Virus record (IMG/VR): IMGVR_UViG_3300045988_086774
Span: 1 to 56,501 of that record
From: a virus
DNA: 56,501 bases
Strand: one strand, 5' to 3'
Shown here: positions 3,317 through 56,501 of the stretch, piece after piece
How the letters are laid out: the number at the start of each line of letters is the position of its first letter
Numbering within the stretch: position 1 is the stretch's first letter
Translations under genes and position numbers: made by a program
Notes under the pieces: generated by a model
What the model saw: the letters and a program-made list of their open reading frames with translations, nothing else
What the model was told of the DNA's origin: nothing
Database searches by the model: none

Positions 3317-4984
3317 TTAAAATGGCCTCTTGACAGGCTCAATTTTACTGATTCCGTTGTACAGTTCATCGGCAAGCTGTGCCAGACTATCCGGTGCATC
3401 ATCGTGCGGAACTTTACCAAGCTGCGTGAACATCGTCACCTGCTCCATGAACGCCTTGTACTCTTTCGACTGATGTTTCTCGTCAAGGAAATAGAATCGC
3501 TTGATGTCCGGCGCATACTGAATGATTCTTGATAGCTTGCTTTGACCACTTGGCGCACGTTGGCTACGGACAGAGCAGTGATAGCCCTGTTGCCGAAGCT
3601 GGCTGTCTACCACGTCACAGTATTCATCGCCGCCGTTGTTGGCTTCGCCACGCACCACGTTAATTTTATGCTGGATGATTTTGCCCACGACTTCCGGTCT
3701 GGTTACGGTCTTGTCGCCGTTATTGAACACAAGGTCATGGATAAACACAGCATCGCCGTACACATAAGCAATAGGACAGGCGGTGAAGTCCCCGCCGCCC
3801 CATGCAATATCCATGACCATGAGCTTGCGATCAGGTTCACCATCAGGCAGAACGCCATTAAAATATCGCAGCTCATCGGCAGGGAACAGCAGACCTTCAC
3901 GCACATAAGGCTTGCCCATGTACTTTGCCCACCATGTTGCGTCATCAATGCTGGATTTCATATCGGCATAGTAGGCATCGTCAAAGCCCACACCATAGTC
4001 ATAATTGAAGTTGCTGTGTCCGTTCTCGTCCACCGCAGGAATCACCCGGAATCTGTACTTAGGATTGTCTGCGTACTGGTTCTGGATGCGCCCCAGAGGG
4101 TCAAGAACGTTCCAGCGTGTACCGACCATCAGCTCCAATGCGCCCTGCTTTTTACGGTCTTTTAGCTGGTTCAGATAAGCATCGTACTTGTTGTTCAGAC
4201 GCTCAACGTTCAGACTTTCTTCCAAATCCTCAATCAGGTCATCGCTGTACAAAACGCCGCCCTCGCCGATTTCAACAGCACCAGTCAGAGTGCCGCCAAT
4301 GGAGCGGCAAGTAAGGGTAGGGAAACGCTTTTTGCGGTTCAGGTCAACACTTTCATCCTTTGCACTCTTATCCACAAGTTGAACGTCAGGGAAGATTTTA
4401 CCCCAGTTATAGGTAACGGGGTCAGTGATGATAGACAGCACTTCGCCGTAGAAGCCATTGGTCAGCTTGTCGGAATGTCCGCTCATAACCGATGCAACGT
4501 CCGGGCGGTTGCCCATAAGCCATGTGATGAAGAAAATGCACAGCGTACTTTTGCCCACGCGAGCCGGAAGACTGACCCCCAAGAAATCTATCCTCTTATA
4601 GAACAAGTCCTCTAGGTCATCTGCCAGCACTTTCAGCACTCTGCGTCTGGGCTGATAGAACTTCTTCTCTGGCGCACGATTCCATTCAAGGTAAATGCAA
4701 TAGCTGTCGAACACATCCTTTGCTTCAAACAGGTACGTCCGGCTGATAATGTCATAGACCTTCGCCACGTCCTCGCCTGTTTTCATCTTGCCCATCATGG
4801 CTGCGCAGACAGAGCGCAACTCGCCAGAATATTTGTAGGCATCGAACCGCTTGTCTTGCGGCAGAGCGTCTCTCAGATTTACAACCGCCTGAAACCAGTC
4901 CTCGTAGACCTGTGCTTCTGTCGGATTCTGCTTTGCATACGCTTTGATGCTGTCGATGATGGCAATGCACTGTTTTGGCTGCAT
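3317..4984 (-). CDS. terL: Terminase large subunit
   Basis: 555 aa with Walker A-like GVSLPARVGKSTL. The C-terminal half (MVMDIAWGGGDFTA...VVRGEANNGGDEY) fits a terminase nuclease domain. It is the first gene of the morphogenesis operon. Confidence 0.9.
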   Translation of the reverse strand: MQPKQCIAIIDSIKAYAKQNPTEAQVYEDWFQAVVNLRDALPQDKRFDAYKYSGELRSVCAAMMGKMKTGEDVAKVYDIISRTYLFEAKDVFDSYCIYLEWNRAPEKKFYQPRRRVLKVLADDLEDLFYKRIDFLGVSLPARVGKSTLCIFFITWLMGNRPDVASVMSGHSDKLTNGFYGEVLSIITDPVTYNWGKIFPDVQLVDKSAKDESVDLNRKKRFPTLTCRSIGGTLTGAVEIGEGGVLYSDDLIEDLEESLNVERLNNKYDAYLNQLKDRKKQGALELMVGTRWNVLDPLGRIQNQYADNPKYRFRVIPAVDENGHSNFNYDYGVGFDDAYYADMKSSIDDATWWAKYMGKPYVREGLLFPADELRYFNGVLPDGEPDRKLMVMDIAWGGGDFTACPIAYVYGDAVFIHDLVFNNGDKTVTRPEVVGKIIQHKINVVRGEANNGGDEYCDVVDSQLRQQGYHCSVRSQRAPSGQSKLSRIIQYAPDIKRFYFLDEKHQSKEYKAFMEQVTMFTQLGKVPHDDAPDSLAQLADELYNGISKIEPVKRPF

Positions 4985-5026
4985 AAAAAATAGGCACCCC
5001 CTACCTGAAAATGTAAAGAGTGCCTA
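4985..5026 (-). terminator. Intrinsic terminator or attenuator hairpin immediately upstream of the terL ATG
   Basis: On the minus strand TAGGCAC...GTGCCTA (5026..4991) is followed by TTTTTT and then ATG. The only SD-like GGGGGTG lies inside the hairpin. Confidence 0.5.
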
Positions 5027-5116
5027 CAACTGCACAAAAATCAAATATTCGGTTTTATAATGCTGTTTTCGGAAAATTATTTGCTAAAATTCATTTTAAC
5101 GGATAGAATGTGCGGT

Positions 5117-5278
5117 TTATTTGACTTCTTCTGCAAGCTGGTTGAGCCTGCGTTTCAGCTCGTCCGCATCGTAGTACAAGGCGTCTGCGACAGCGTTGAG
5201 AATATCAGGCTTGTTGGTGTAATCGCACAGCGTTTCAATGAGTTTCAAACTCTGTTCTGACAATTTTACGAGTTTCAT
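5117..5278 (-). CDS. Hypothetical small protein (53 aa)
   Basis: ATG 5278 behind AAAGGAAAA; MKLVKLSEQSLKLIETLCDYTNKPDILNAVADALYYDADELKRRLNQLAEEVK. Too short for the ORF track. Confidence 0.5.
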   Translation of the reverse strand: MKLVKLSEQSLKLIETLCDYTNKPDILNAVADALYYDADELKRRLNQLAEEVK

Positions 5279-5296: not shown

Positions 5297-6529
5297 TTAT
5301 TCTCCCGCTTTGAAATTGTAAATGGGCTTAATGCGTTTTACAATATCAACTGTTGGGGAGATTGCGTTGATAATTTCCTGCGCTGGCTTATATGCCATCG
5401 GGCATTCATCCAATGTGGATTCATCGACTGACGTAGTATAGATTCCGTTCATCTGCTTTTGGTATTCCTCAACGCTGAATGCCTTTTTAGCCGCTGTTCT
5501 ACTGTATAATCTTCCAGCACCATGAGGAGCAGAAAAATTCCAATCAGGATTGCCCTTGCCAACACAGATAAGGCTTCCGTCTCTCATATTAAGAGGAATA
5601 ATCAGCTTCTCACCCTCTCTAGCGGATACGGAGCCTTTTCGGATAATATCATCCGATTCATCAATATAGTTATGAACAGTTTCAAAGAAAGACGCATGAG
5701 TTAGCATAGAATCAATTCCAACCCCATCTAAAATGGAATGCATAATTCTTGCCCGATTCATTTTCGCAAACGCCTGACAAATCCGCATATCATTAAGGTA
5801 AGAATCACGTTCTTTGCCTTCAAGATAGCAAAGCTCATTCGGAATATCAGGGAACCGAACATCTAATTCTTTGATTTTTTGCGAGATTTCTTGTTCACGA
5901 CCTTGCGCTTTCAGTTCTGCAATCAGACGTTCCGTAGCGTCTTTTCTTTTGCTCTTTCCTTTAAGATTTGAAATGGCTACGCTTTGATGGTACTCGGCAA
6001 CCTGCTTTCCGAGGTTTCTGCTTCCAGTATGGATAACAAGGTACTGGTTTTTTTCTTCATCTTCGTCCAGCTCGATAAAATGATTTCCGCCGCCCAAAGT
6101 GCCCATACTACGAAGAATCCAGTCAACATTATGCAGGCTATCTTTACAGTCAAGTTGGTTAAGAAAAGCTCCCGACATTTTCTGCGATTCGTGAACATTC
6201 ATTCCAGCCGGAACTCGTTCTCTGATTACTTTATCCAACTTTTCCGGGTCGATATGTTCAATTCCGAGTTCAGCAACAAGCATTCCGCAGCCAATGTCAA
6301 CGCCGACAATATTGGGAATGACCTTCTTGCCCAAGTTTGCCGTGAATCCGATGACGCATCCAGAGCCAGCATGAACATCTGGCATAATGCGAATCTTGCA
6401 TCCGTCAACAAAACTCTGATTGCAAAGCGTCAAAATCTGCTCAGATGCCTTATCTTCAATATTGTCCGTAAACACCTTTGCGGACGCATATTTTCCTTCA
6501 ATCGTTTTCAACTTGTTCTCCTTTCTCAT
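5297..6529 (-). CDS. rtcB: RtcB-family 3-prime-phosphate RNA ligase
   Basis: 410 aa with RtcB signature segments IMPDVHAGSGCVIG, GGGNHFIELDED, IHTGSRNLG and APHGAGR. Confidence 0.9.
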   Translation of the reverse strand: MRKENKLKTIEGKYASAKVFTDNIEDKASEQILTLCNQSFVDGCKIRIMPDVHAGSGCVIGFTANLGKKVIPNIVGVDIGCGMLVAELGIEHIDPEKLDKVIRERVPAGMNVHESQKMSGAFLNQLDCKDSLHNVDWILRSMGTLGGGNHFIELDEDEEKNQYLVIHTGSRNLGKQVAEYHQSVAISNLKGKSKRKDATERLIAELKAQGREQEISQKIKELDVRFPDIPNELCYLEGKERDSYLNDMRICQAFAKMNRARIMHSILDGVGIDSMLTHASFFETVHNYIDESDDIIRKGSVSAREGEKLIIPLNMRDGSLICVGKGNPDWNFSAPHGAGRLYSRTAAKKAFSVEEYQKQMNGIYTTSVDESTLDECPMAYKPAQEIINAISPTVDIVKRIKPIYNFKAGE

Positions 6530-13911: not shown

Positions 13912-14616
13912 TTACAGGCGATTGAACTCTGGTTCACTGTACTGTTGCTTCTCTTGCTCTCTGTCAATCCACATATCAGCAAAGGCCTTCCAGTTTGTTA
14001 TAGGCTTTCCGGTTTTGGTCATCCAACCTGTTCCATCATAGTAGTTCATAAACCTGCTGGCAAGCCTGTTTTCACATCCAGCATCCAAAAAATACTCGCT
14101 CACATCCTCGAAGTCCGGCGTGCTGGCGTTCCCATCGGGCGGTTCGCCCGCTTTCTTAATAACTTTTTTTCTTTTCTTTTCTTCTATATTAAGGAGGTGA
14201 ACGATTGTTCCCCTCACAGGTGAAGCATCGTTCCCCTCAGAGGTGAATGATTGTTCACCTCCCTTTTCGCTCTTTAAAGATTCTTTCGGCACTTTGACGT
14301 ATATCTTATCGGGCTTGTTCTTGCCTTCACGCTTGCGCTCGATCAACCCGGCTTCTTCCAGCTCTTTCAAAGACTTCTTGACCCATCGTTCTGTGAATCC
14401 AGTATCGGCAGCAAGGTCTTTGATGGGATACACAATGTATACTCGCCCTAATTGGTCAGCAAACTTTCCGCTTCTGCTTGCCCTCTGTGACGACCTTGCA
14501 CGATTGAACAGGTAAATGTAAACAATTTTCTCTGTTGGGCTAACGTCAATAGTCGAGAAGAATCGGGGGTATACCATGTACCCATTGACCTTTGTATCGG
14601 CTGTCATGTACTGCAT
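13912..14616 (-). CDS. RepA_N-type replication initiator (winged helix)
   Basis: 234 aa behind AGGAGG. YPRFFSTIDVSPTEKIVYIYLFNRARSS...YIVYPIKDLAADTGFTERWVKKSLKELEEAGLIERKREGKNKPDKIYV matches the RepA_N pattern from memory. Confidence 0.65.
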   Translation of the reverse strand: MQYMTADTKVNGYMVYPRFFSTIDVSPTEKIVYIYLFNRARSSQRASRSGKFADQLGRVYIVYPIKDLAADTGFTERWVKKSLKELEEAGLIERKREGKNKPDKIYVKVPKESLKSEKGGEQSFTSEGNDASPVRGTIVHLLNIEEKKRKKVIKKAGEPPDGNASTPDFEDVSEYFLDAGCENRLASRFMNYYDGTGWMTKTGKPITNWKAFADMWIDREQEKQQYSEPEFNRL

Positions 14617-33176: not shown

Positions 33177-33341
33177 ATGGGGGACGAAATGACAAAGCAT
33201 GGGGGACGTTTTGACAAGTCATGGGGGACGTTTTGACAAGTCATGGGGGACGTTTTGACAAGTCATGGGGGACGTTTTGACGACCCTATGGGGGACAAAA
33301 AGACAAGCCACGGGGGACAGAATGTATTGACTTGTCCCCCC
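33177..33341 (+). repeat. Iteron array of the plasmid-type origin (22-bp period)
   Basis: ATGGGGGACGTTTTGACAAGTC occurs perfectly at 33199, 33221 and 33243. Degenerate copies lie at 33177, 33265, 33288 and 33310, plus an inverted half GACTTGTCCCCCC at 33329..33341. The array is directly upstream of rep. Confidence 0.9.
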
Positions 33342-33385
33342 AATCTGTGATATACTGCTTTTAGGCTAGAAAAGGAGGCGAACAG

Positions 33386-34465
33386 ATGCAAAAAATATCC
33401 GACAACAACCTTGTCGAAAAAAGCAAATCTCTTGTGTGGGCAAAGTTCAGGGACTACACGGCAGGCGAGCTCCGGTTGCTAGAGGTTTACTTGTCAAGAA
33501 TAAATCCGAGAGACCCAAACAGCAGCCGTGTGGAGTTCTCGTTGGCAGAGTACAGAGACCTGCTTGGGTTAAAAAGCCTTGATGCACGAAGGATTGAGCC
33601 GCAGATCAAGCACTTTCTGGGCAATACGGTGTCGATTCCCATTGACAAAGAGAAGGGGACGTTTGAGAGTTTTGTCTTGTTCACAAGGGCGAAACTGGAC
33701 TATGTACCCGAAACGAGGTCTTATGTTGTGGCAATCACTTGCAACCCTGACCTTCGCCCCATCTTTTTTGATATTGCAGAAAGCGGGTACGTTCGGTATC
33801 GTCTACGCTACACATCACGAATGAAGTCTCAGTACAGCATTCTGCTTTATTCGATTCTTCGGGACTGGCTGAACATGGATAGCAAGCCGCATGAAATCAG
33901 TCTGAAAAAACTGAGAGAACAGCTCGGTGCGATGGAAGCAAGCTACGATGTTTACAAGAACCTTCGCAAACGAGTGCTTGATGTTGCAGTAGATGAGATC
34001 AATGCTGTGTCTGACATTGTTGTGACTTACGAGCCGGTTCTTGTGGCACGAAAGGCTGTGGCAGTTAAGTTTAAGCCCAAAATTAAAGCGTCTGAGACGC
34101 TGATTGAAGCTCAGGCAAGCGAAGTATCAACTGAACCTCAAAAAGCCGCCAGAAAGCCCCGCAGAAGCGGATACGAGGACTTTGACTGGTCTATGTGTGA
34201 CGAACTAGAAAAGCAGGACTGCATTGACGTGGCAAAAGTGGTTGAGAAGTGGATGAAGAAAGAGCATCCTGAAATCAAGTTGCCGAGACGCAGAGAAGCG
34301 GTCTACGATACGGTAAAGGCGGCGTATAAGGATATTTTGTCTTTGGACAGGTCTCCGTTCCCTGACAGACCTGTTGGCTATCTGATTAGAAGCGTAGACA
34401 AAGCGGGTATCGTAGACAAGTATATGCCAGCATTCTATTCCATTGAAGCGTTACAAGAGCAGTAA
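33386..34465 (+). CDS. repA: Rep_3-type iteron-binding replication initiator
   Basis: 359 aa behind AAGGAGG. ELRLLEVYLSRINPRD...VEFSLAEYRDLLGL...SQYSILLYSILRDWL...YKNLRKRVLDVAVDEINAVSDIVVTYEP fits the Rep_3 pattern. Confidence 0.8.
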   Translation: MQKISDNNLVEKSKSLVWAKFRDYTAGELRLLEVYLSRINPRDPNSSRVEFSLAEYRDLLGLKSLDARRIEPQIKHFLGNTVSIPIDKEKGTFESFVLFTRAKLDYVPETRSYVVAITCNPDLRPIFFDIAESGYVRYRLRYTSRMKSQYSILLYSILRDWLNMDSKPHEISLKKLREQLGAMEASYDVYKNLRKRVLDVAVDEINAVSDIVVTYEPVLVARKAVAVKFKPKIKASETLIEAQASEVSTEPQKAARKPRRSGYEDFDWSMCDELEKQDCIDVAKVVEKWMKKEHPEIKLPRRREAVYDTVKAAYKDILSLDRSPFPDRPVGYLIRSVDKAGIVDKYMPAFYSIEALQEQ

Positions 34466-34507
34466 GGCGTAGCGCGTTGAGCAGATGATGCAGAAAGGAG
34501 AAAGAGT

Positions 34508-34789
34508 ATGATTCCAATGTTTCCGAAAGGCTATGACAAGGACAAGTGGTATATGACCAAAGATGTTATGCCGGATAAAAGCCTAGAAGGATGGCCTCGT
34601 GGGCTTTTACTTCGTATCGAAGATAAGAAAACAGGAGAAAAAAGTTTCATAATCGGCAAGTACGATACAATCAACGGCAAATGGTTTGATTCCGATAGTA
34701 ATGAAATCAAAGGAACTGTAATTGCATGGCACGTCACGCCTTTATTGTGGGTCGGAGACGAGATAAAGGCAGCATATCCGTTCTACTAA
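34508..34789 (+). CDS. Hypothetical protein (DUF551-like)
   Basis: 93 aa; GKWFDSDSNEIKGTVIAWHVTPLLW. Confidence 0.45.
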   Translation: MIPMFPKGYDKDKWYMTKDVMPDKSLEGWPRGLLLRIEDKKTGEKSFIIGKYDTINGKWFDSDSNEIKGTVIAWHVTPLLWVGDEIKAAYPFY

Positions 34790-34806
34790 AAAGAAAGAGT
34801 GATAAA

Positions 34807-35058
34807 ATGGCAAAAGTTCAAAGTTCCGTTTTGTACAGAGAAATAGCGAAATTGCTAGACGACTTCGATTGTAACAGAGTTGAGTTTTTCACCGTTGGGG
34901 ACGGAATTGATACGCCGATTCATGTAATGGTCGGTTCTCGTGGACATGGCACTGTAGAACCAGACGAAGCGATTGAGGAAGGAAAGGCGCTGATTGAGGC
35001 TGGTAAGGCGGCAAAAAAATTTAAGTACAATGGTTATTTTGTAATGTGGGGAGAATAA
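34807..35058 (+). CDS. Small conserved protein, paralog A (flanks parA)
   Basis: ATG 34807. FFTVGDGIDTPIHVMVGSRGHG...EEGKALIEAGKAAKKFKYNGYFVMW aligns with 35828..36085. Confidence 0.6.
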   Translation: MAKVQSSVLYREIAKLLDDFDCNRVEFFTVGDGIDTPIHVMVGSRGHGTVEPDEAIEEGKALIEAGKAAKKFKYNGYFVMWGE

Positions 35059-35060
35059 AA

Positions 35061-35831
35061 ATGGCAAAAATCATATCTGTCGCTAACCAGAAGGGCGGCA
35101 CAGGAAAGACTACCACAAGCACCTGTCTGGCTGGTGCGTTGCAGTTGCTTGGCAAAAAGGTGTTGCTGGTGGACTGCGATGCACAGTGCAACGCAACGGA
35201 CACATACGGCGCACAGACAGAGGACGTGTGTACCCTGTTCGATGTAATGACCCGGCAGGGCACGGTGGAAGAGGGAATCCAGCACTGTGAAGCTGGTGAC
35301 ATTCTTCCGTCAGACAACGCATTGAAGGACATTGACGAGCAGCTTGTCCGGGACATGGGCAAGAACTTCCGGCTGCGTGAAGCGCTGGAATCCGTGTCTG
35401 ATCAGTACGATTACATTGTTCTGGACACTCCCCCGCAGCTTGGTCTTGCGCTTGTAAACGCTCTAATCGCCGCCAATAGCATCATCGTACCCATTACAGC
35501 AGACCGATATGCGCTTGCCGGACTGAGCCAGCTTTCGCAGACCATCGGTGACGTTCGTAGATACTTTAACCCGACTTTGAAAATTGAAGGTCTGCTTCTG
35601 AACCAGTACAAGAGCCGTGAGAACCTGTCAAAAGAGGTTGTGGAGCAGCTTCCTGTGATTGCACAGAGCATGGGTACAACCCTGCTGGATGTGAAGATTA
35701 GACCGTCTATGGGCGTTCGTAAGGCACAGGCAGAGCGGCATAGCCTGTTTAGCGGTGACACGGCAAAGAGCACCAGCGCAGAGGACTTCAAAGAGCTGGC
35801 AAAGAAGATTGTAGAGGGGGATGTGCAGTGA
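35061..35831 (+). CDS. parA: ParA/Soj-type partition ATPase
   Basis: MAKIISVANQKGGTGKTTT deviant Walker A; YDYIVLDTPP. Confidence 0.9.
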   Translation: MAKIISVANQKGGTGKTTTSTCLAGALQLLGKKVLLVDCDAQCNATDTYGAQTEDVCTLFDVMTRQGTVEEGIQHCEAGDILPSDNALKDIDEQLVRDMGKNFRLREALESVSDQYDYIVLDTPPQLGLALVNALIAANSIIVPITADRYALAGLSQLSQTIGDVRRYFNPTLKIEGLLLNQYKSRENLSKEVVEQLPVIAQSMGTTLLDVKIRPSMGVRKAQAERHSLFSGDTAKSTSAEDFKELAKKIVEGDVQ

Positions 35832-36085
35832 ATGTAGTTAGATATAAAGAGCTGGAAAAAGCCGAGTTTGAACTGCAAAGCAAATTCAGCTCGAAAGATG
35901 TTATGTTTTTCCGTCGAGGGGATGGAATAGACAATCCGATTTATTATGTTGTTTCACAAAGACATTGTGGGGCGTTAAGTTCCGAAGAAGCCATAAAAGC
36001 CGGAAAAGTTTTGATTGAAGCTGGAAATGCGGCAAAATCTTTTCGGTACAACGGGTATTTTATTGATTGGAGTGACACACAGTGA
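35828..36085 (+). CDS. Small conserved protein, paralog B (flanks parA)
   Basis: GTG start overlaps the parA stop. FFRRGDGIDNPIYYVVSQRHCG...KAGKVLIEAGNAAKSFRYNGYFIDW. Confidence 0.6.
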   Translation: MNVVRYKELEKAEFELQSKFSSKDVMFFRRGDGIDNPIYYVVSQRHCGALSSEEAIKAGKVLIEAGNAAKSFRYNGYFIDWSDTQ

Positions 36086-36654
36086 AAAAGTCCAGCAAAA
36101 AAACATCCGGCTTGTTGGGCGGGTTTGACTTCCAGCCTGTTTTTTCGGAACAGACATTAAGCCGAAGTGAGCCAAAGGAAGAAGAAGTAAGCCAAACAAA
36201 GCCGAATAATGCCGAACAAGCACCGATTAAGCCCAGTGATGCCATAGACAGCCATGCACAGCCGAGTGAAGCAGAATTAAGTAGTGTTAAGCCGAAGCAA
36301 GCCAAAGACGGCAAAAGCAAGCCAAATGATGCCGTGTTAGGCGAAGGTAAGCCAAAGAAGTTGAAACAGGCGAAAGAAATTCAACGTCTTATCGAGCAAG
36401 GCGATGTTCCCGGAGCACTGGCTGAAGCTGGCTTGACAAAGAAAAAAATCCCGATGCCGGAATCGCATCAGGGCGTTGCAAGCGGTGACGGCAAGCGTTC
36501 TAAACGCATTACCATCCTTATGAGCGAGGAAGAACGCAAGTACATCAACCGTGAAGCCAGACGGCACGGAATGACGATAGGGCAGTATGTGTACGCTCTG
36601 GCTGCTGCTGCGGCAGACGGGAAGATTGAGTTGGAGGATTTCTTGGAGGACTGA
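36082..36654 (+). CDS. RHH centromere-binding-type protein (ParR/ParG analog) with a long disordered N-terminus
   Basis: C-terminal KRSKRITILMSEEERKYINREARRHGMTIGQYVYAL fits an RHH. The N-terminal K/P/E-rich part is encoded by the 10-bp repeat array. Confidence 0.6.
   Translation: MKKSSKKTSGLLGGFDFQPVFSEQTLSRSEPKEEEVSQTKPNNAEQAPIKPSDAIDSHAQPSEAELSSVKPKQAKDGKSKPNDAVLGEGKPKKLKQAKEIQRLIEQGDVPGALAEAGLTKKKIPMPESHQGVASGDGKRSKRITILMSEEERKYINREARRHGMTIGQYVYALAAAAADGKIELEDFLED
36161..36360 (+). repeat. 20 tandem 10-bp units (consensus GCCRAAnnAA); candidate partition centromere embedded in coding sequence
   Basis: 14 of 20 consecutive decamers start with GCC at exactly 10-bp phase (36161, 171, 191, 201, 211, 231, 241, 251, 261, 291, 301, 321, 331, 351). 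Confidence 0.8.
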
Positions 36655-36655
36655 C

Positions 36656-36811
36656 ATGACGAAACAAGAGAGAGTTGCAAGAATTGCAAAATACTACACA
36701 ACTTTCCATTTGTTTGGCGATTGGTATCTTGTTAGGCGTTATCCTAAACACTTCCGTAGTTGGAAAAGATTCGTTCCGTTGTATATACTAATGAACATCA
36801 AAGAAGAATAA
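36656..36811 (+). CDS. Hypothetical small protein (51 aa)
   Basis: ATG 36656 lies 5 nt after GGAGGA; MTKQERVARIAKYYTTFHLFGDWYLVRRYPKHFRSW... Confidence 0.45.
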   Translation: MTKQERVARIAKYYTTFHLFGDWYLVRRYPKHFRSWKRFVPLYILMNIKEE

Positions 36812-36830
36812 TCTATGTGAGAGGAGAAAA

Positions 36831-37244
36831 ATGCGCACATACAAGCCACGCAAGCACAGAAGCAAAGAGGAACAAGCCAAAATAAACGCAGAGGTAGCAA
36901 AACGTAAAGCAAAACTGGCTGAAAAGTACAATACTGACACGCAGTATTATAAGGGCATTCCTGTTGAGCTGATTGTAAGAGAGGATTACGGTTGCTACAA
37001 AGCAAAGCGTTTCAAAATAAACGGTAGTAATCAAAACGTGTGGATTCCAAACTGCTATCTTGAAGATGACGGAACAATCAAGGCGAATATGAACATTGAT
37101 TTTGTATTCCGTAAGTCTGTAAACCAGTTAAATAAAGCTGGAATCACGCAAGCGATTATTGGCATCAAACGTAAAATGCCAGAAGCAGATGCTCCAAATC
37201 TTAAAAGTACCATACAGAAAATCGGAGATACAGGAACTTGCTAA
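36831..37244 (+). CDS. Hypothetical protein, basic N-terminus
   Basis: 137 aa behind GAGAGGAGAAAA. Confidence 0.55.
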   Translation: MRTYKPRKHRSKEEQAKINAEVAKRKAKLAEKYNTDTQYYKGIPVELIVREDYGCYKAKRFKINGSNQNVWIPNCYLEDDGTIKANMNIDFVFRKSVNQLNKAGITQAIIGIKRKMPEADAPNLKSTIQKIGDTGTC

Positions 37245-37291: not shown

Positions 37292-37930
37292 TTACTTATC
37301 AGCAATGCAATTCCAGTAGAGATACGCCTTGCCGTCCACAGCGTCCGTGTCATCAAGGAACGCCTTTGCCATGTCAGCGTAGAAGCCAGGAGTGTCAACG
37401 GACTGCCGCTTTGCGACCTGACAATAATCCGAGTACATCATGTTCATGACAGCCCAGAAATCGTTCGGGTCACAGGTGATATTGCGCTGTTTGGCAACGT
37501 CCTGTGTCTGTTCCAGCGTCCAGTGACAGCCTTTAGTACCGTCAGCATTCACCATGCTGTCGCACCATTCTTCCGCTTCATCGTGGGTGAGGTGCTTTCG
37601 TGGCATCTTGATGAAACGGCTGTCTGCACCGCCATGCTCATACTGCCCAGACCGCTTATCCCAGTCTCCGTTCTGCGAGAAGCCAATCTGCGGCATCTTG
37701 CGCCCATACTCTACGTCAGGGTAGCGGGGGATAGGGTAGGGGTCGATGTAGCGGTTCTCCTCCTGCGGATAGTAAGGATAGCGGTCGCTGCCATCTTCCA
37801 GCTTGCGCAGACGGCGTTCCAACTCACGCTCCCTGCGATCACGCTCTTCCTCAAGGCGGTCACGTTCCGGCTCACGGTCTTTATCGTGGTCGCGGAGCAT
37901 CATCATGCGGCGAAAATTAGTCTTGCCCAT
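37292..37930 (-). CDS. Hypothetical protein: highly charged RDRE-rich N-terminus and Cys-containing C-terminal domain
   Basis: 212 aa behind GAGGAGG; RDREPERDRLEEERDRRERELERRLRKLE...YPYYPQEENRYIDPYPIPRYP...WAVMNMMYSDYCQVAK. Confidence 0.6.
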   Translation of the reverse strand: MGKTNFRRMMMLRDHDKDREPERDRLEEERDRRERELERRLRKLEDGSDRYPYYPQEENRYIDPYPIPRYPDVEYGRKMPQIGFSQNGDWDKRSGQYEHGGADSRFIKMPRKHLTHDEAEEWCDSMVNADGTKGCHWTLEQTQDVAKQRNITCDPNDFWAVMNMMYSDYCQVAKRQSVDTPGFYADMAKAFLDDTDAVDGKAYLYWNCIADK

Positions 37931-56077: not shown

Positions 56078-56501
56078 TTAATGGAAAGCACTCATTGCGT
56101 CACTCGATGCCTTAGAAGTATTTGCGTTCTGCTGTGCAAGGCTCTTGGCAAACGCCACGCCTTCGCTGTCAGAGCCGCCCTTGCCATCCGCACCCGGAGG
56201 CGTAGGCATATCCTTCAGCAGAGAAGCCTTATATGCGGTGTCATGGACGGTCATAAACTCCGACTGGAACTTAAACACCTTGTCCATGTCGCCGTCAGCC
56301 AGTGCAGATGCAGCCTTGCCAGCCAGTTCAGCATCATAACCCTGTGCAACGAACTTCTCACGGTAAGATGCAAGGGTCTTTTCTTTGACGAGGTTTTCCT
56401 TGTCGGCAGTCAGGGATTCAATCTGCTTCTGCATCTCCGCCAGCCTGTCAGCCTGTTCCTGTGCGGCGTTCTCGTCATCAGTACGCTTTGCTTTGAGCTG
56501 C
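56078..56501 (-). CDS. Scaffolding protein, C-terminal part (see 1..235)
   Basis: Open frame runs to the window end and continues in frame at 1..235 through the 77-bp overlap. Confidence 0.75.
   Translation of the reverse strand, partial: QLKAKRTDDENAAQEQADRLAEMQKQIESLTADKENLVKEKTLASYREKFVAQGYDAELAGKAASALADGDMDKVFKFQSEFMTVHDTAYKASLLKDMPTPPGADGKGGSDSEGVAFAKSLAQQNANTSKASSDAMSAFH
56425..56501. repeat. Second copy of the 77-bp terminal overlap
   Basis: Identical to 1..77. Confidence 0.95.

Follow-up and report, generated by a model that had tools for sequence, protein, structure and literature searches.

Can the DNA site on which a partition protein assembles lie inside the coding sequence of that same protein? 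The question is raised by a viral DNA of 56,501 nucleotides (IMG/VR record IMGVR_UViG_3300045988_086774, positions 1 to 56,501, referred to here in its whole length as the window), in which the open reading frame (ORF) 36082-36654, a gene for a candidate ribbon-helix-helix (RHH) protein downstream of a parA gene, carries a run of 20 direct decamers. It is shown below that the repeat belongs to the DNA and not to the peptide, and that purifying selection maintains it whatever the codon phase. As judged from sequence comparison, the array is probably a centromere of type Ib, overprinted on that part of its own binding protein's gene which codes for the linker. The coordinates of the features are collected in Table 1.

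A decameric array inside an open reading frame

A preliminary description of the window had counted, within 36161-36360, 20 decamers, 14 of them with GCC, and 13 stop triplets out of frame. All these counts were reproduced: GCC opens 14 of the 20 decamers in exact register, and besides the 13 stop triplets within the array there is one at 36158, none of them being in the frame of the ORF. The information of the unit (AAGCCRAAnn) is concentrated at A1, G3, C4, C5, A7 and A8, runs of at least four good units are present, and the units are read in all three codon phases. The self-identity of the array is 0.568 at lag 10, 0.529 at lag 30 and 0.511 at lag 20, compared with 0.15-0.35 at other lags and with a highest value of 0.449 in 5000 shuffles over lags 1-30. 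Across the whole sequence, the top segment of 200 base pairs (bp) for lag 10 is the one that holds the array. Tandem Repeats Finder reports only a fragment of it (36289-36326, period 10), because the units are degenerate. The preliminary description had also placed the units in helical phase. This would hold only approximately, since the repeat has a period of 10.0 bp while a helical turn takes about 10.5 bp, so that the sites drift slowly round the helix over 200 bp.

The periodicity goes beyond what the encoded peptide imposes. When the array peptide was synonymously recoded 20,000 times with the codon usage of the element, self-identity at lag 10 averaged 0.342 (standard deviation 0.034, maximum 0.476) against 0.571 observed, which lies 6.7 standard deviations above, and in-register GCC averaged 5.5 (maximum 12) against 14 observed. 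Codon bias was ruled out as the source of the GCC cores, GCC being only the third-ranked alanine codon in the element (17%). Codon statistics and stops were compared among 71 unique sequences of relatives. The array shows a flattened profile of entropy across the codon positions (0.25/0.19/0.34, versus 0.05/0.04/0.63 in the RHH domain), and variability follows the position in the decamer and not that in the codon: it is 0.13 at G, 0.15 and 0.22 at the two C, 0.55 at R and 0.13 at the next A, and then 0.38 (A), 0.26 and 0.30 (n, n), 0.14 (A) and 0.34 (A). The degenerate third-codon sites within the GCC cores of the 14 good units, which fall in AGC, AAG/GAG/CAG or GCC codons according to the phase, are essentially invariant in 14 of 14 cases, with a mean entropy of 0.06 compared with 0.60 over the remaining 116 third positions of the ORF that are degenerate (p = 1e-5 in a Mann-Whitney test). 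In addition, synonymous divergence (dS, Nei-Gojobori) is 0.215 in the array versus 0.47, 0.46 and 0.52 in the three other segments of the ORF, while non-synonymous divergence (dN) is highest in the array (0.085 versus 0.02-0.07 elsewhere). Recoding, the invariance of the core sites and dS agree with the earlier proposal of a signal in the DNA and not in the peptide.

An array without any DNA function must be considered in this regard, that is, a low-complexity spacer produced by replication slippage, whose 10-bp periodicity would be a mutational by-product. Linkers do vary widely in length and sequence over the family (98 to 200 amino acids, aa), unit-sized insertions and deletions (indels) occur, and a 9-bp array in one related lineage can be accounted for by its peptide repeat. 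This explanation is made very unlikely by the synonymous sites of the GCC cores, which stay invariant while their neighbors vary, by a dS that is halved where dN is raised, by the small share of GCC among the alanine codons and by independent lineages that keep 10-bp arrays with different motifs; moreover, slippage by 10 bp is a frameshift and hence the least likely product of selection on the peptide. Synonymous constraint alone cannot tell DNA from RNA, and the repeat might act in the messenger, either as a recurrent motif for an RNA-binding protein or a small RNA or in the control of translation speed. We regard this as highly improbable: the RNA fold of the array is no more stable than those of shuffles (z = +0.76), no Rfam family matches the array, and the exact 10-nucleotide (nt) spacing, with a register held over deletions and lineages, fits the geometry of a duplex. 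The antisense ORFs are, besides, broken in a third of the relatives (the two that run across the array in 23 and 25 of the 71, respectively), and overlapping antisense genes were discarded as a source of the constraint. A target of a diversity-generating retroelement, as the variable positions are often A, was likewise rejected, no template repeat being found on either strand of the complete genome.

The start of translation had been left between 36082 and a downstream ATG at 36454. Comparison among the relatives indicates that the array is translated, from the GTG at 36082, because of the start signals at this codon (Table 1), the coding signature of the N-terminus, the open frame and the quantised lengths of the protein. 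Homology with the relatives begins exactly at 36081/36082 and ends at 36655, and that to MT836731 resumes exactly at the GTG. In the 23 codons upstream of the array the entropy by codon position (0.30/0.05/0.51) is that of coding DNA. The internal ATG 36454, which lacks an upstream Shine-Dalgarno sequence, was rejected as the start, given the conserved N-terminal peptide with its coding signature and the frame kept open. Between 36082 and 36453, stops occur at 43 distinct positions in frames +1 and +2, 40 of them polymorphic, versus none in the frame of the ORF, and one-step routes to new stops are equal across the three frames; the earlier statement that the frame is kept open over the array thus holds among the relatives. 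The proteins fall into length classes of 190, 180, 170, 160 and 150 aa, which correspond to internal deletions of exactly 10, 20, 30 and 40 aa, and the DNA of the 160-aa and 150-aa variants has 11 and 8 decamers in unbroken register. Array size variants of 8, 11, 14 and 17 units were found, all in register. Their size steps are of 30 bp, or three units, which is the least common multiple of decamer and codon and is expected from unit-wise recombination filtered by the reading-frame requirement. Both array and frame are kept in the relatives, with indels in 30-bp steps only. On the minus strand, a terminator-like hairpin followed by a T-run lies inside the ORF at 36447-36472 (codons ~122-130) and corresponds to the A-run AAGAAAAAAATCCCGATGCCGGAATCGCATCAGG on the plus strand.

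The encoded protein and the lineages of arrays

The product of the ORF begins with the peptide MKKSSKKTSGLLGGFDFQ, which is kept in all lineages, down to 34% overall identity. It is presumed to be a ParA-binding and ParA-activating motif, by analogy with ParB proteins, whose N-termini carry unstructured motifs of basic and aliphatic residues that bind ParA, and with the N-terminal motif of ParG (PMC12462528). AlphaFold2 predicted residues 1-93 to be without secondary structure, with a linker of about 70 residues lacking any predicted structure (pLDDT <55), while the strand-helix-helix region of residues 141-180 reached a pLDDT of 84-94. The RHH fold assigned to the C-terminus in the preliminary description was also suggested by Pfam, AlphaFold2 and Foldseek. 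Pfam gave a NikA-like RHH match at residues 138-174 (E 7e-6, 26.5 bits versus a cut-off of 27), and the top Foldseek matches in the PDB were almost all RHH proteins (AtaR, FitA, CdbA, CopG with a TM of 0.71, and Arc), with E-values >0.7. NCBIfam yielded just a weak MobA RHH match, PHROGs had no family for the protein, and searches of PDB sequences with the protein and with the family profile found no meaningful homologue. The evidence is consistent with an RHH-like C-terminus, every single line of it being below formal thresholds.

Distant relatives were few in the representative search, and their DNA was recovered by means of a profile search and contig look-ups; scans of IMG/VR with P0132, P0139 and P0137 gave no matches. 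All the distant lineages have the Rep3-ParA-RHH synteny with hardly any intergenic DNA. The lineages P0132, P0148, P0153 and P0158, at 34-48% identity, carry 10-bp arrays in their linker-coding DNA beyond the effect of the peptide, and P0137 has significant 10- and 30-bp lags in a lag analysis without recoding (Table 2). Comparison of the lineages showed that the array motif tracks the beta-strand of the RHH domain: KRITILM is paired with AGCCRA, PRITIIM with CAGCGR in four lineages whose linker peptides and lengths have diverged, TRMAIAM with GTCAG, and RVSV with CAGAAT in two lineages whose linker peptides are unrelated and whose periods differ. In four PRITIIM loci (L096, L099, L100 and L101) the offset of 5 bp between CAGCGR blocks is half a helical turn, and a non-repeat spacer lies between the blocks. 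The short-linker lineage P0146 (L088) does have intergenic DNA, and in it a 19-mer, GTAnCAAGAAGTATTATGT, is present upstream of parA and downstream of the RHH gene (4113-4131 and 5389-5407, 95% identical), together with 10-bp-phased AAGTA motifs, all on a single contig. Two-sided centromeres are known from pB171-type loci, which this bracketing recalls. In P0164 (L098), the ParA-RHH pair adjoins a phage integrase and an HTH_36 protein.

Table 2. Repeats in the linker-coding DNA and beta-strand of the RHH domain, by lineage
Lineage	Repeat	Beta-strand	z against synonymous recoding
Window type	20 x 10 bp, AGCCRA, 9 matches in a single register	KRITILM	~6.7
P0132	12 decamers GTCAGnnGAA, 10 matches in a single register	TRMAIAM	5.8
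P0148, P0153, P0158, P0137	(A)CAGCGRAA, 10-bp register, usually two blocks offset by 5 bp	PRITIIM	4.4 (P0148), 3.1 (P0153), 4.0 (P0158)
P0136	GCAGAAT, copies spaced by multiples of 10 bp; lag-20 signal borderline (same value as the 99th percentile of shuffles)	KRVSVAM	
P0126	~19 units of 9 bp, CAGAnTGAR, in frame	SRVSVPM	0.8
P0164	No array detected	RRMCVAM	
P0146	Short linker (102 aa), no array	RRMNIAM	

Exchange between array types was found in two relatives, L083 and L085. Their ParA is 91-92% identical to that of the window, and the DNA of 36092-36140 (the initial 49 nt past the start codon) is 98-100% identical, while beyond 36140 both have an array and RHH domain of the P0126 type. The recombination junction at 36140 is at the border of the N-terminal peptide and the array. 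L085 keeps a window-like Rep and iterons (91.7%), and in view of this mix of types it is the RHH domain, rather than Rep or ParA, that the array type follows. L083 has, at 4884-5218 (ORF 4898-5218), a truncated remnant of a window-type RHH gene which matches 36320-36654 of the window at 88.7%. In genomes with the P0126-type cassette, this truncated gene (P0122) is intact as an ORF of 106 aa, is located a few hundred bp downstream of the cassette and keeps only about the last four decamers; it looks like a relic of cassette replacement, or is possibly a second regulator.

The case for a centromere is strengthened because the motifs of the lineages track the RHH beta-strand and because the array type segregates with the RHH domain. 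The same two facts bear on whether the array serves a factor other than the RHH protein, as a binding site for a host nucleoid protein, as intrinsic curvature due to phased A-runs, or as a replication or packaging signal. A-rich units at 10-bp phase could indeed curve DNA, and constraint at the level of the nucleic acid points to no particular binder. Nevertheless, we hold such a role to be quite unlikely, given that the motif changes in step with the RHH beta-strand, which is unexpected for a host factor or a generic bend, that the conserved core is GCC and not the A-runs, that the array type is independent of the Rep and iteron type, and that the terminase genes are 31 kb distant.

The partition locus and its genome

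The ParA protein (256-261 aa) is small and Walker-type, without a helix-turn-helix (HTH) domain at its N-terminus. Matches were obtained to Pfam AAA_31 (3e-54), CbiA and ParA, the best solved homologues were ParA/Soj, and the match to NCBIfam ParA_partition was partial and below the cut-off. No ParM-like gene was seen in the locus. Among 70 relatives, parA (35058-35800) and the RHH ORF (36082-36655) are common to 100%, while the hypervariable cargo slots 34500-35050, 35830-36080 and 36660-37240 are common to only 7-22%; upstream of parA the cargo varies, just ~10% of the relatives having it in common. The slot between parA and the RHH gene measures 5 nt in 7 of 80 loci and otherwise 210-740 nt of varied content; in 7 of 80 close relatives, and in every one of the distant lineages, parA and the RHH gene lie side by side or overlap. 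In the window this slot is filled by an 85-aa cargo ORF whose stop and start codons overlap with those of its neighbors on both sides; it is present in ~9% of the relatives and is a paralogue (49% identity) of ORF 34726-35058, which lies in another of the slots, neither of them having a Pfam or PHROG match. The genes of the rep-par string abut or overlap, and the conservation profile of the 70 relatives contained no conserved non-coding DNA beside parA or the RHH gene. Since the flanks are variable and the genes abut or overlap, a conserved cis-site linked to par must be intragenic.

Table 1. Coordinates of the features of the rep-par region in the window
Feature	Coordinates	Strand	Remarks
22-bp iterons, ~6 copies	33177..33318	+	Upstream of the Rep3 initiator gene (33386-34465); plasmid origin region
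parA, Soj-like Walker-type partition ATPase	35046..35831	+	By comparison with relatives, probable true start ATG 35061 (MAKII...)
Variable cargo ORF, 85 aa	35828..36085	+	In the hypervariable parA-RHH slot; outside the conserved module
Candidate gene for RHH centromere-binding protein, 190 aa	36082..36654	+	GTG start overlaps the upstream stop (GTGA); GGAG 9 nt upstream
DNA coding for the N-terminal peptide MKKSSKKTSGLLGGFDFQPVFSE	36082..36150	+	Presumed ParA-binding/-activating motif; basic and aliphatic residues, unstructured
Array, 20 direct decamers AAGCCRAAnn	36159..36360	+	GCC register from 36161; encodes aa 27-93 (disordered linker); proposed centromere
Conserved middle segment, aa 94-140	36361..36501	+	One predicted helix (aa 94-105), HQG motif before the RHH domain; dN/dS 0.08
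Ribbon-helix-helix domain, aa 141-180	36502..36621	+	Beta-strand KRITILM, helices 149-161 and 166-178; dN/dS 0.04

From these sequence data we infer that the RHH domain is the binder, that its complex with the array is the centromere, and that the array may also act as a roadblock in autoregulation. The RHH protein would touch ParA by its N-terminal basic/aliphatic peptide and would dimerise and bind DNA by its C-terminal RHH domain, the two being joined by a long disordered linker whose coding DNA would double as the cis-acting partition site. Each of the ~20 units of 10 bp would be occupied by one RHH dimer, and the dimers, bound cooperatively and more or less on one side of the helix, would make up a partition complex which offers many N-terminal peptides to nucleoid-bound ParA. 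The motif could run through all codon phases because the linker is under little constraint at the protein level, the requirement from that side being an open frame and nothing else. As the linker DNA would be the binding site of the same protein, array and RHH domain would form one indivisible specificity cassette, exchanged between similar genomes.

Whether this arrangement extends to the family as a whole is, in our estimation, evenly balanced. In that case the centromere would generally lie inside the coding segment for the disordered linker of the RHH protein, in the form of 10-bp units that are read in all three frames; the site and its binder would be one swappable specificity (incompatibility) cassette that changes in size by 30-bp steps, its occupancy could feed back on its own transcription, and disordered linkers would provide free coding space for cis-arrays.

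The array could also be an operator or roadblock, bound by the RHH protein and tuning its own expression or that of downstream genes, with the centromere elsewhere, for instance in dispersed single sites. RHH proteins of type Ib systems are repressors too (PMC3074162; pMF1, PMC3235114), dispersed or intragenic centromere-like sites occur in pMF1 (PMC3235114) and for SegB (PMC12284271), and the P0164 lineage manages without an array. This is an unlikely explanation, however, as the motif is essentially confined to the array, which contains seven of the nine forward copies of AAGCCRAA, and no second cluster was found on either strand of the complete genome. In addition, the strong tandem arrays genome-wide (lags 6-44) are two, the Rep3 iterons (0.83) and the array itself (0.59), all the rest being at or below 0.52. 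Twenty units are well beyond the needs of an operator and match centromere sizes, and in the known type Ib systems operator and centromere are the same site.

Several points weigh against a centromere at this place. A protein-coated array within a gene that needs to be transcribed is mechanistically awkward, and the array does not overlap the par promoter, unlike usual type Ib centromeres. The RHH assignment stays just under the Pfam threshold, with no significant structural or sequence match in the PDB. It must be noted that the apparent correlation between beta-strand and motif rests on about five classes, and that the signal of the P0126-type 9-bp array is inseparable from a tripeptide (QxxQxx) repeat. 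Array and RHH domain are ~150 bp apart in one ORF, and therefore their co-inheritance could be plain linkage. Finally, P0164, with its linker of ~65 aa, lacks both intergenic DNA and any detectable array, which means that the design is not universal and that this lineage must have a site of another type.

With respect to its genomic setting, the window is a complete circular assembly, because it ends in a 77-bp exact terminal direct repeat (1-77 = 56425-56501); the unique length is 56,424 bp, with a guanine plus cytosine content of 48.6%. Phage genes for the large terminase, the major head protein, the tape-measure protein, a DnaB-like helicase and a methyltransferase are encoded together with a plasmid module made up of the iterons and Rep3 initiator, the Soj-like Walker ParA and ORF 36082-36654, and the element is a phage-plasmid because of this combination of structural and packaging genes with a plasmid module. 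The best explanation is that of a tailed phage which also persists as a plasmid and is equipped with Rep3, its iterons and a partition pair similar to type Ib. On the plus strand upstream of the rep-par gene string, the sole 10-of-12 sigma-70 match is a promoter-like site at 33327-33356. The relatives, MT836731 and MT836154 among them, come from human faecal metagenomes, and those of the RHH protein comprise 813 protein clusters and 503 IMG/VR loci, mainly on contigs of 55-60 kb, which makes the family abundant in the human gut. No DNA match to the element was found among PLSDB plasmids and no relatives of it among GTDB genome representatives.

Further traits of the element were observed outside the rep-par string. 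The gene at 37292-37930 on the minus strand, convergent to the par operon, encodes a DUF7841 protein of 212 aa with a charged, ERDR-rich N-terminus, and is a conserved neighbor in most of the lineages examined (L095, L096, L097, L099, L100, L101 and L103). A 23-bp repeat that is itself dyad-symmetric, AGGTGAAcgattgTTCCCCTCAC, occurs three times at 14195-14261, inside ORF 13912-14616 (minus strand), which has weak HTH matches and adjoins the DnaB-like helicase gene; this repeat may be a second (lytic) origin or an operator, likewise in coding DNA. The minus-strand gene at 5297-6529 encodes a phage RtcB-like RNA ligase (PHROG 1075, E 1.6e-134), whose role may be the repair of tRNAs cut by host defence nucleases.

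Comparison with known systems

Should the array prove to be the centromere, partition here would do without any non-coding component, the 200-bp centromere being overprinted on a translated, disordered region of its binder. It would explain how compact phage-plasmids retain a par system between hypervariable cargo slots, and partition specificity, and hence incompatibility, would be exchangeable as one cassette. In addition, with a 10-bp unit cycling through the codon phases, the locus would be a natural system for splitting protein-level from DNA-level constraint. Annotators would be warned that low-complexity linkers of DNA-binding proteins can hide cis-elements.

The preliminary description had compared the locus with ParR/parC of plasmid R1. 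This comparison had to be abandoned: the partner nucleoside triphosphatase (NTPase) is a Walker-type, Soj-like ParA and not an actin-like protein, and for this reason the apt comparison is with type Ib systems (pCXC100, pSM19035, TP228). Like these, the locus has a small Walker ParA, an RHH-candidate gene downstream of parA and a short direct-repeat array, but the array is inside the downstream gene and not upstream of parA over an autoregulated promoter. It departs from type II ParMRC systems in that the NTPase adjacent to the RHH gene is a Walker ParA and not an actin-like ParM. ParR of R1, according to the account of Dam and Gerdes (1994) given in PMC3235114, is an RHH adaptor on about ten direct 11-bp repeats. 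Its NTPase is the actin-like ParM, as opposed to the Walker ParA found here. The R1 parC site flanks the promoter upstream of parM and is non-coding.

The array agrees well with the RHH centromeres characterised so far. Among type Ib systems, pCXC100 of Leifsonia xyli has nine unspaced 9-bp direct repeats, which are bound successively and cooperatively by dimers of an RHH protein with a flexible N-terminal region of ~64 aa (PMC3074162). It resembles the window in its small Walker ParA, its long flexible N-terminus and its uninterrupted array of short repeats, and differs in that its array is non-coding, upstream of parA and overlapping the promoter, whereas that of the window consists of 20 units of 10 bp and is translated; no sequence similarity was detectable between the proteins of pCXC100 and those of the window. 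In the delta/omega/parS system of pSM19035, from Firmicutes, 7-10 contiguous non-palindromic heptads are bound by one dimer per repeat, at least four contiguous ones being needed (PMC9499535). Both systems have a Soj-like ParA, the candidate RHH protein of the window would, like omega, activate ParA through an unstructured N-terminal tail, and the array of the window also has runs of at least four good units. However, the 7-bp heptads of pSM19035 occupy promoter regions and are present several times on each plasmid, and omega has 71 aa, while in the window the array is single and intragenic and encodes a linker of ~70 aa in a protein of 190 aa.

Repeats bound by the product of the gene in which they lie are familiar from replication origins. 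The iterons of ori-lambda lie inside gene O, and the origins of RepA_N plasmids (pAD1, pLS32) inside repA. In repABC plasmids, oriV is inside repC and a parS is at the 5' end of repB (PMC9040568). As proposed for the window, the repeated cis-element in lambda O, RepA_N and repC occupies a less-constrained central or linker region of the gene of its binder, and as a result site and binder are inherited together. These elements differ in being replication origins bound by initiators, with repeats of 19-22 bp or otherwise not phase-cycling 10-bp units, and none is a partition centromere of an RHH protein.

Partition sites may also sit in coding DNA, as the parS in repB indicates, together with the sites of the RHH protein SegB, 83% of which are intragenic (PMC12284271), and those of pMF1 ParB inside ORFs (PMC3235114). 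Such sites are palindromes that occur singly or in small numbers and are dispersed over unrelated genes, in contrast to a 200-bp tandem array that encodes the linker of its own putative binder. In the open-access literature searched, no description was found of a tandem RHH centromere array forming the linker of its own binding protein. Intragenic partition sites and cis-arrays in the gene of the binder are, therefore, already known separately, and what sets the window apart from the characterised RHH centromeres is where its array lies, and that this array is translated.

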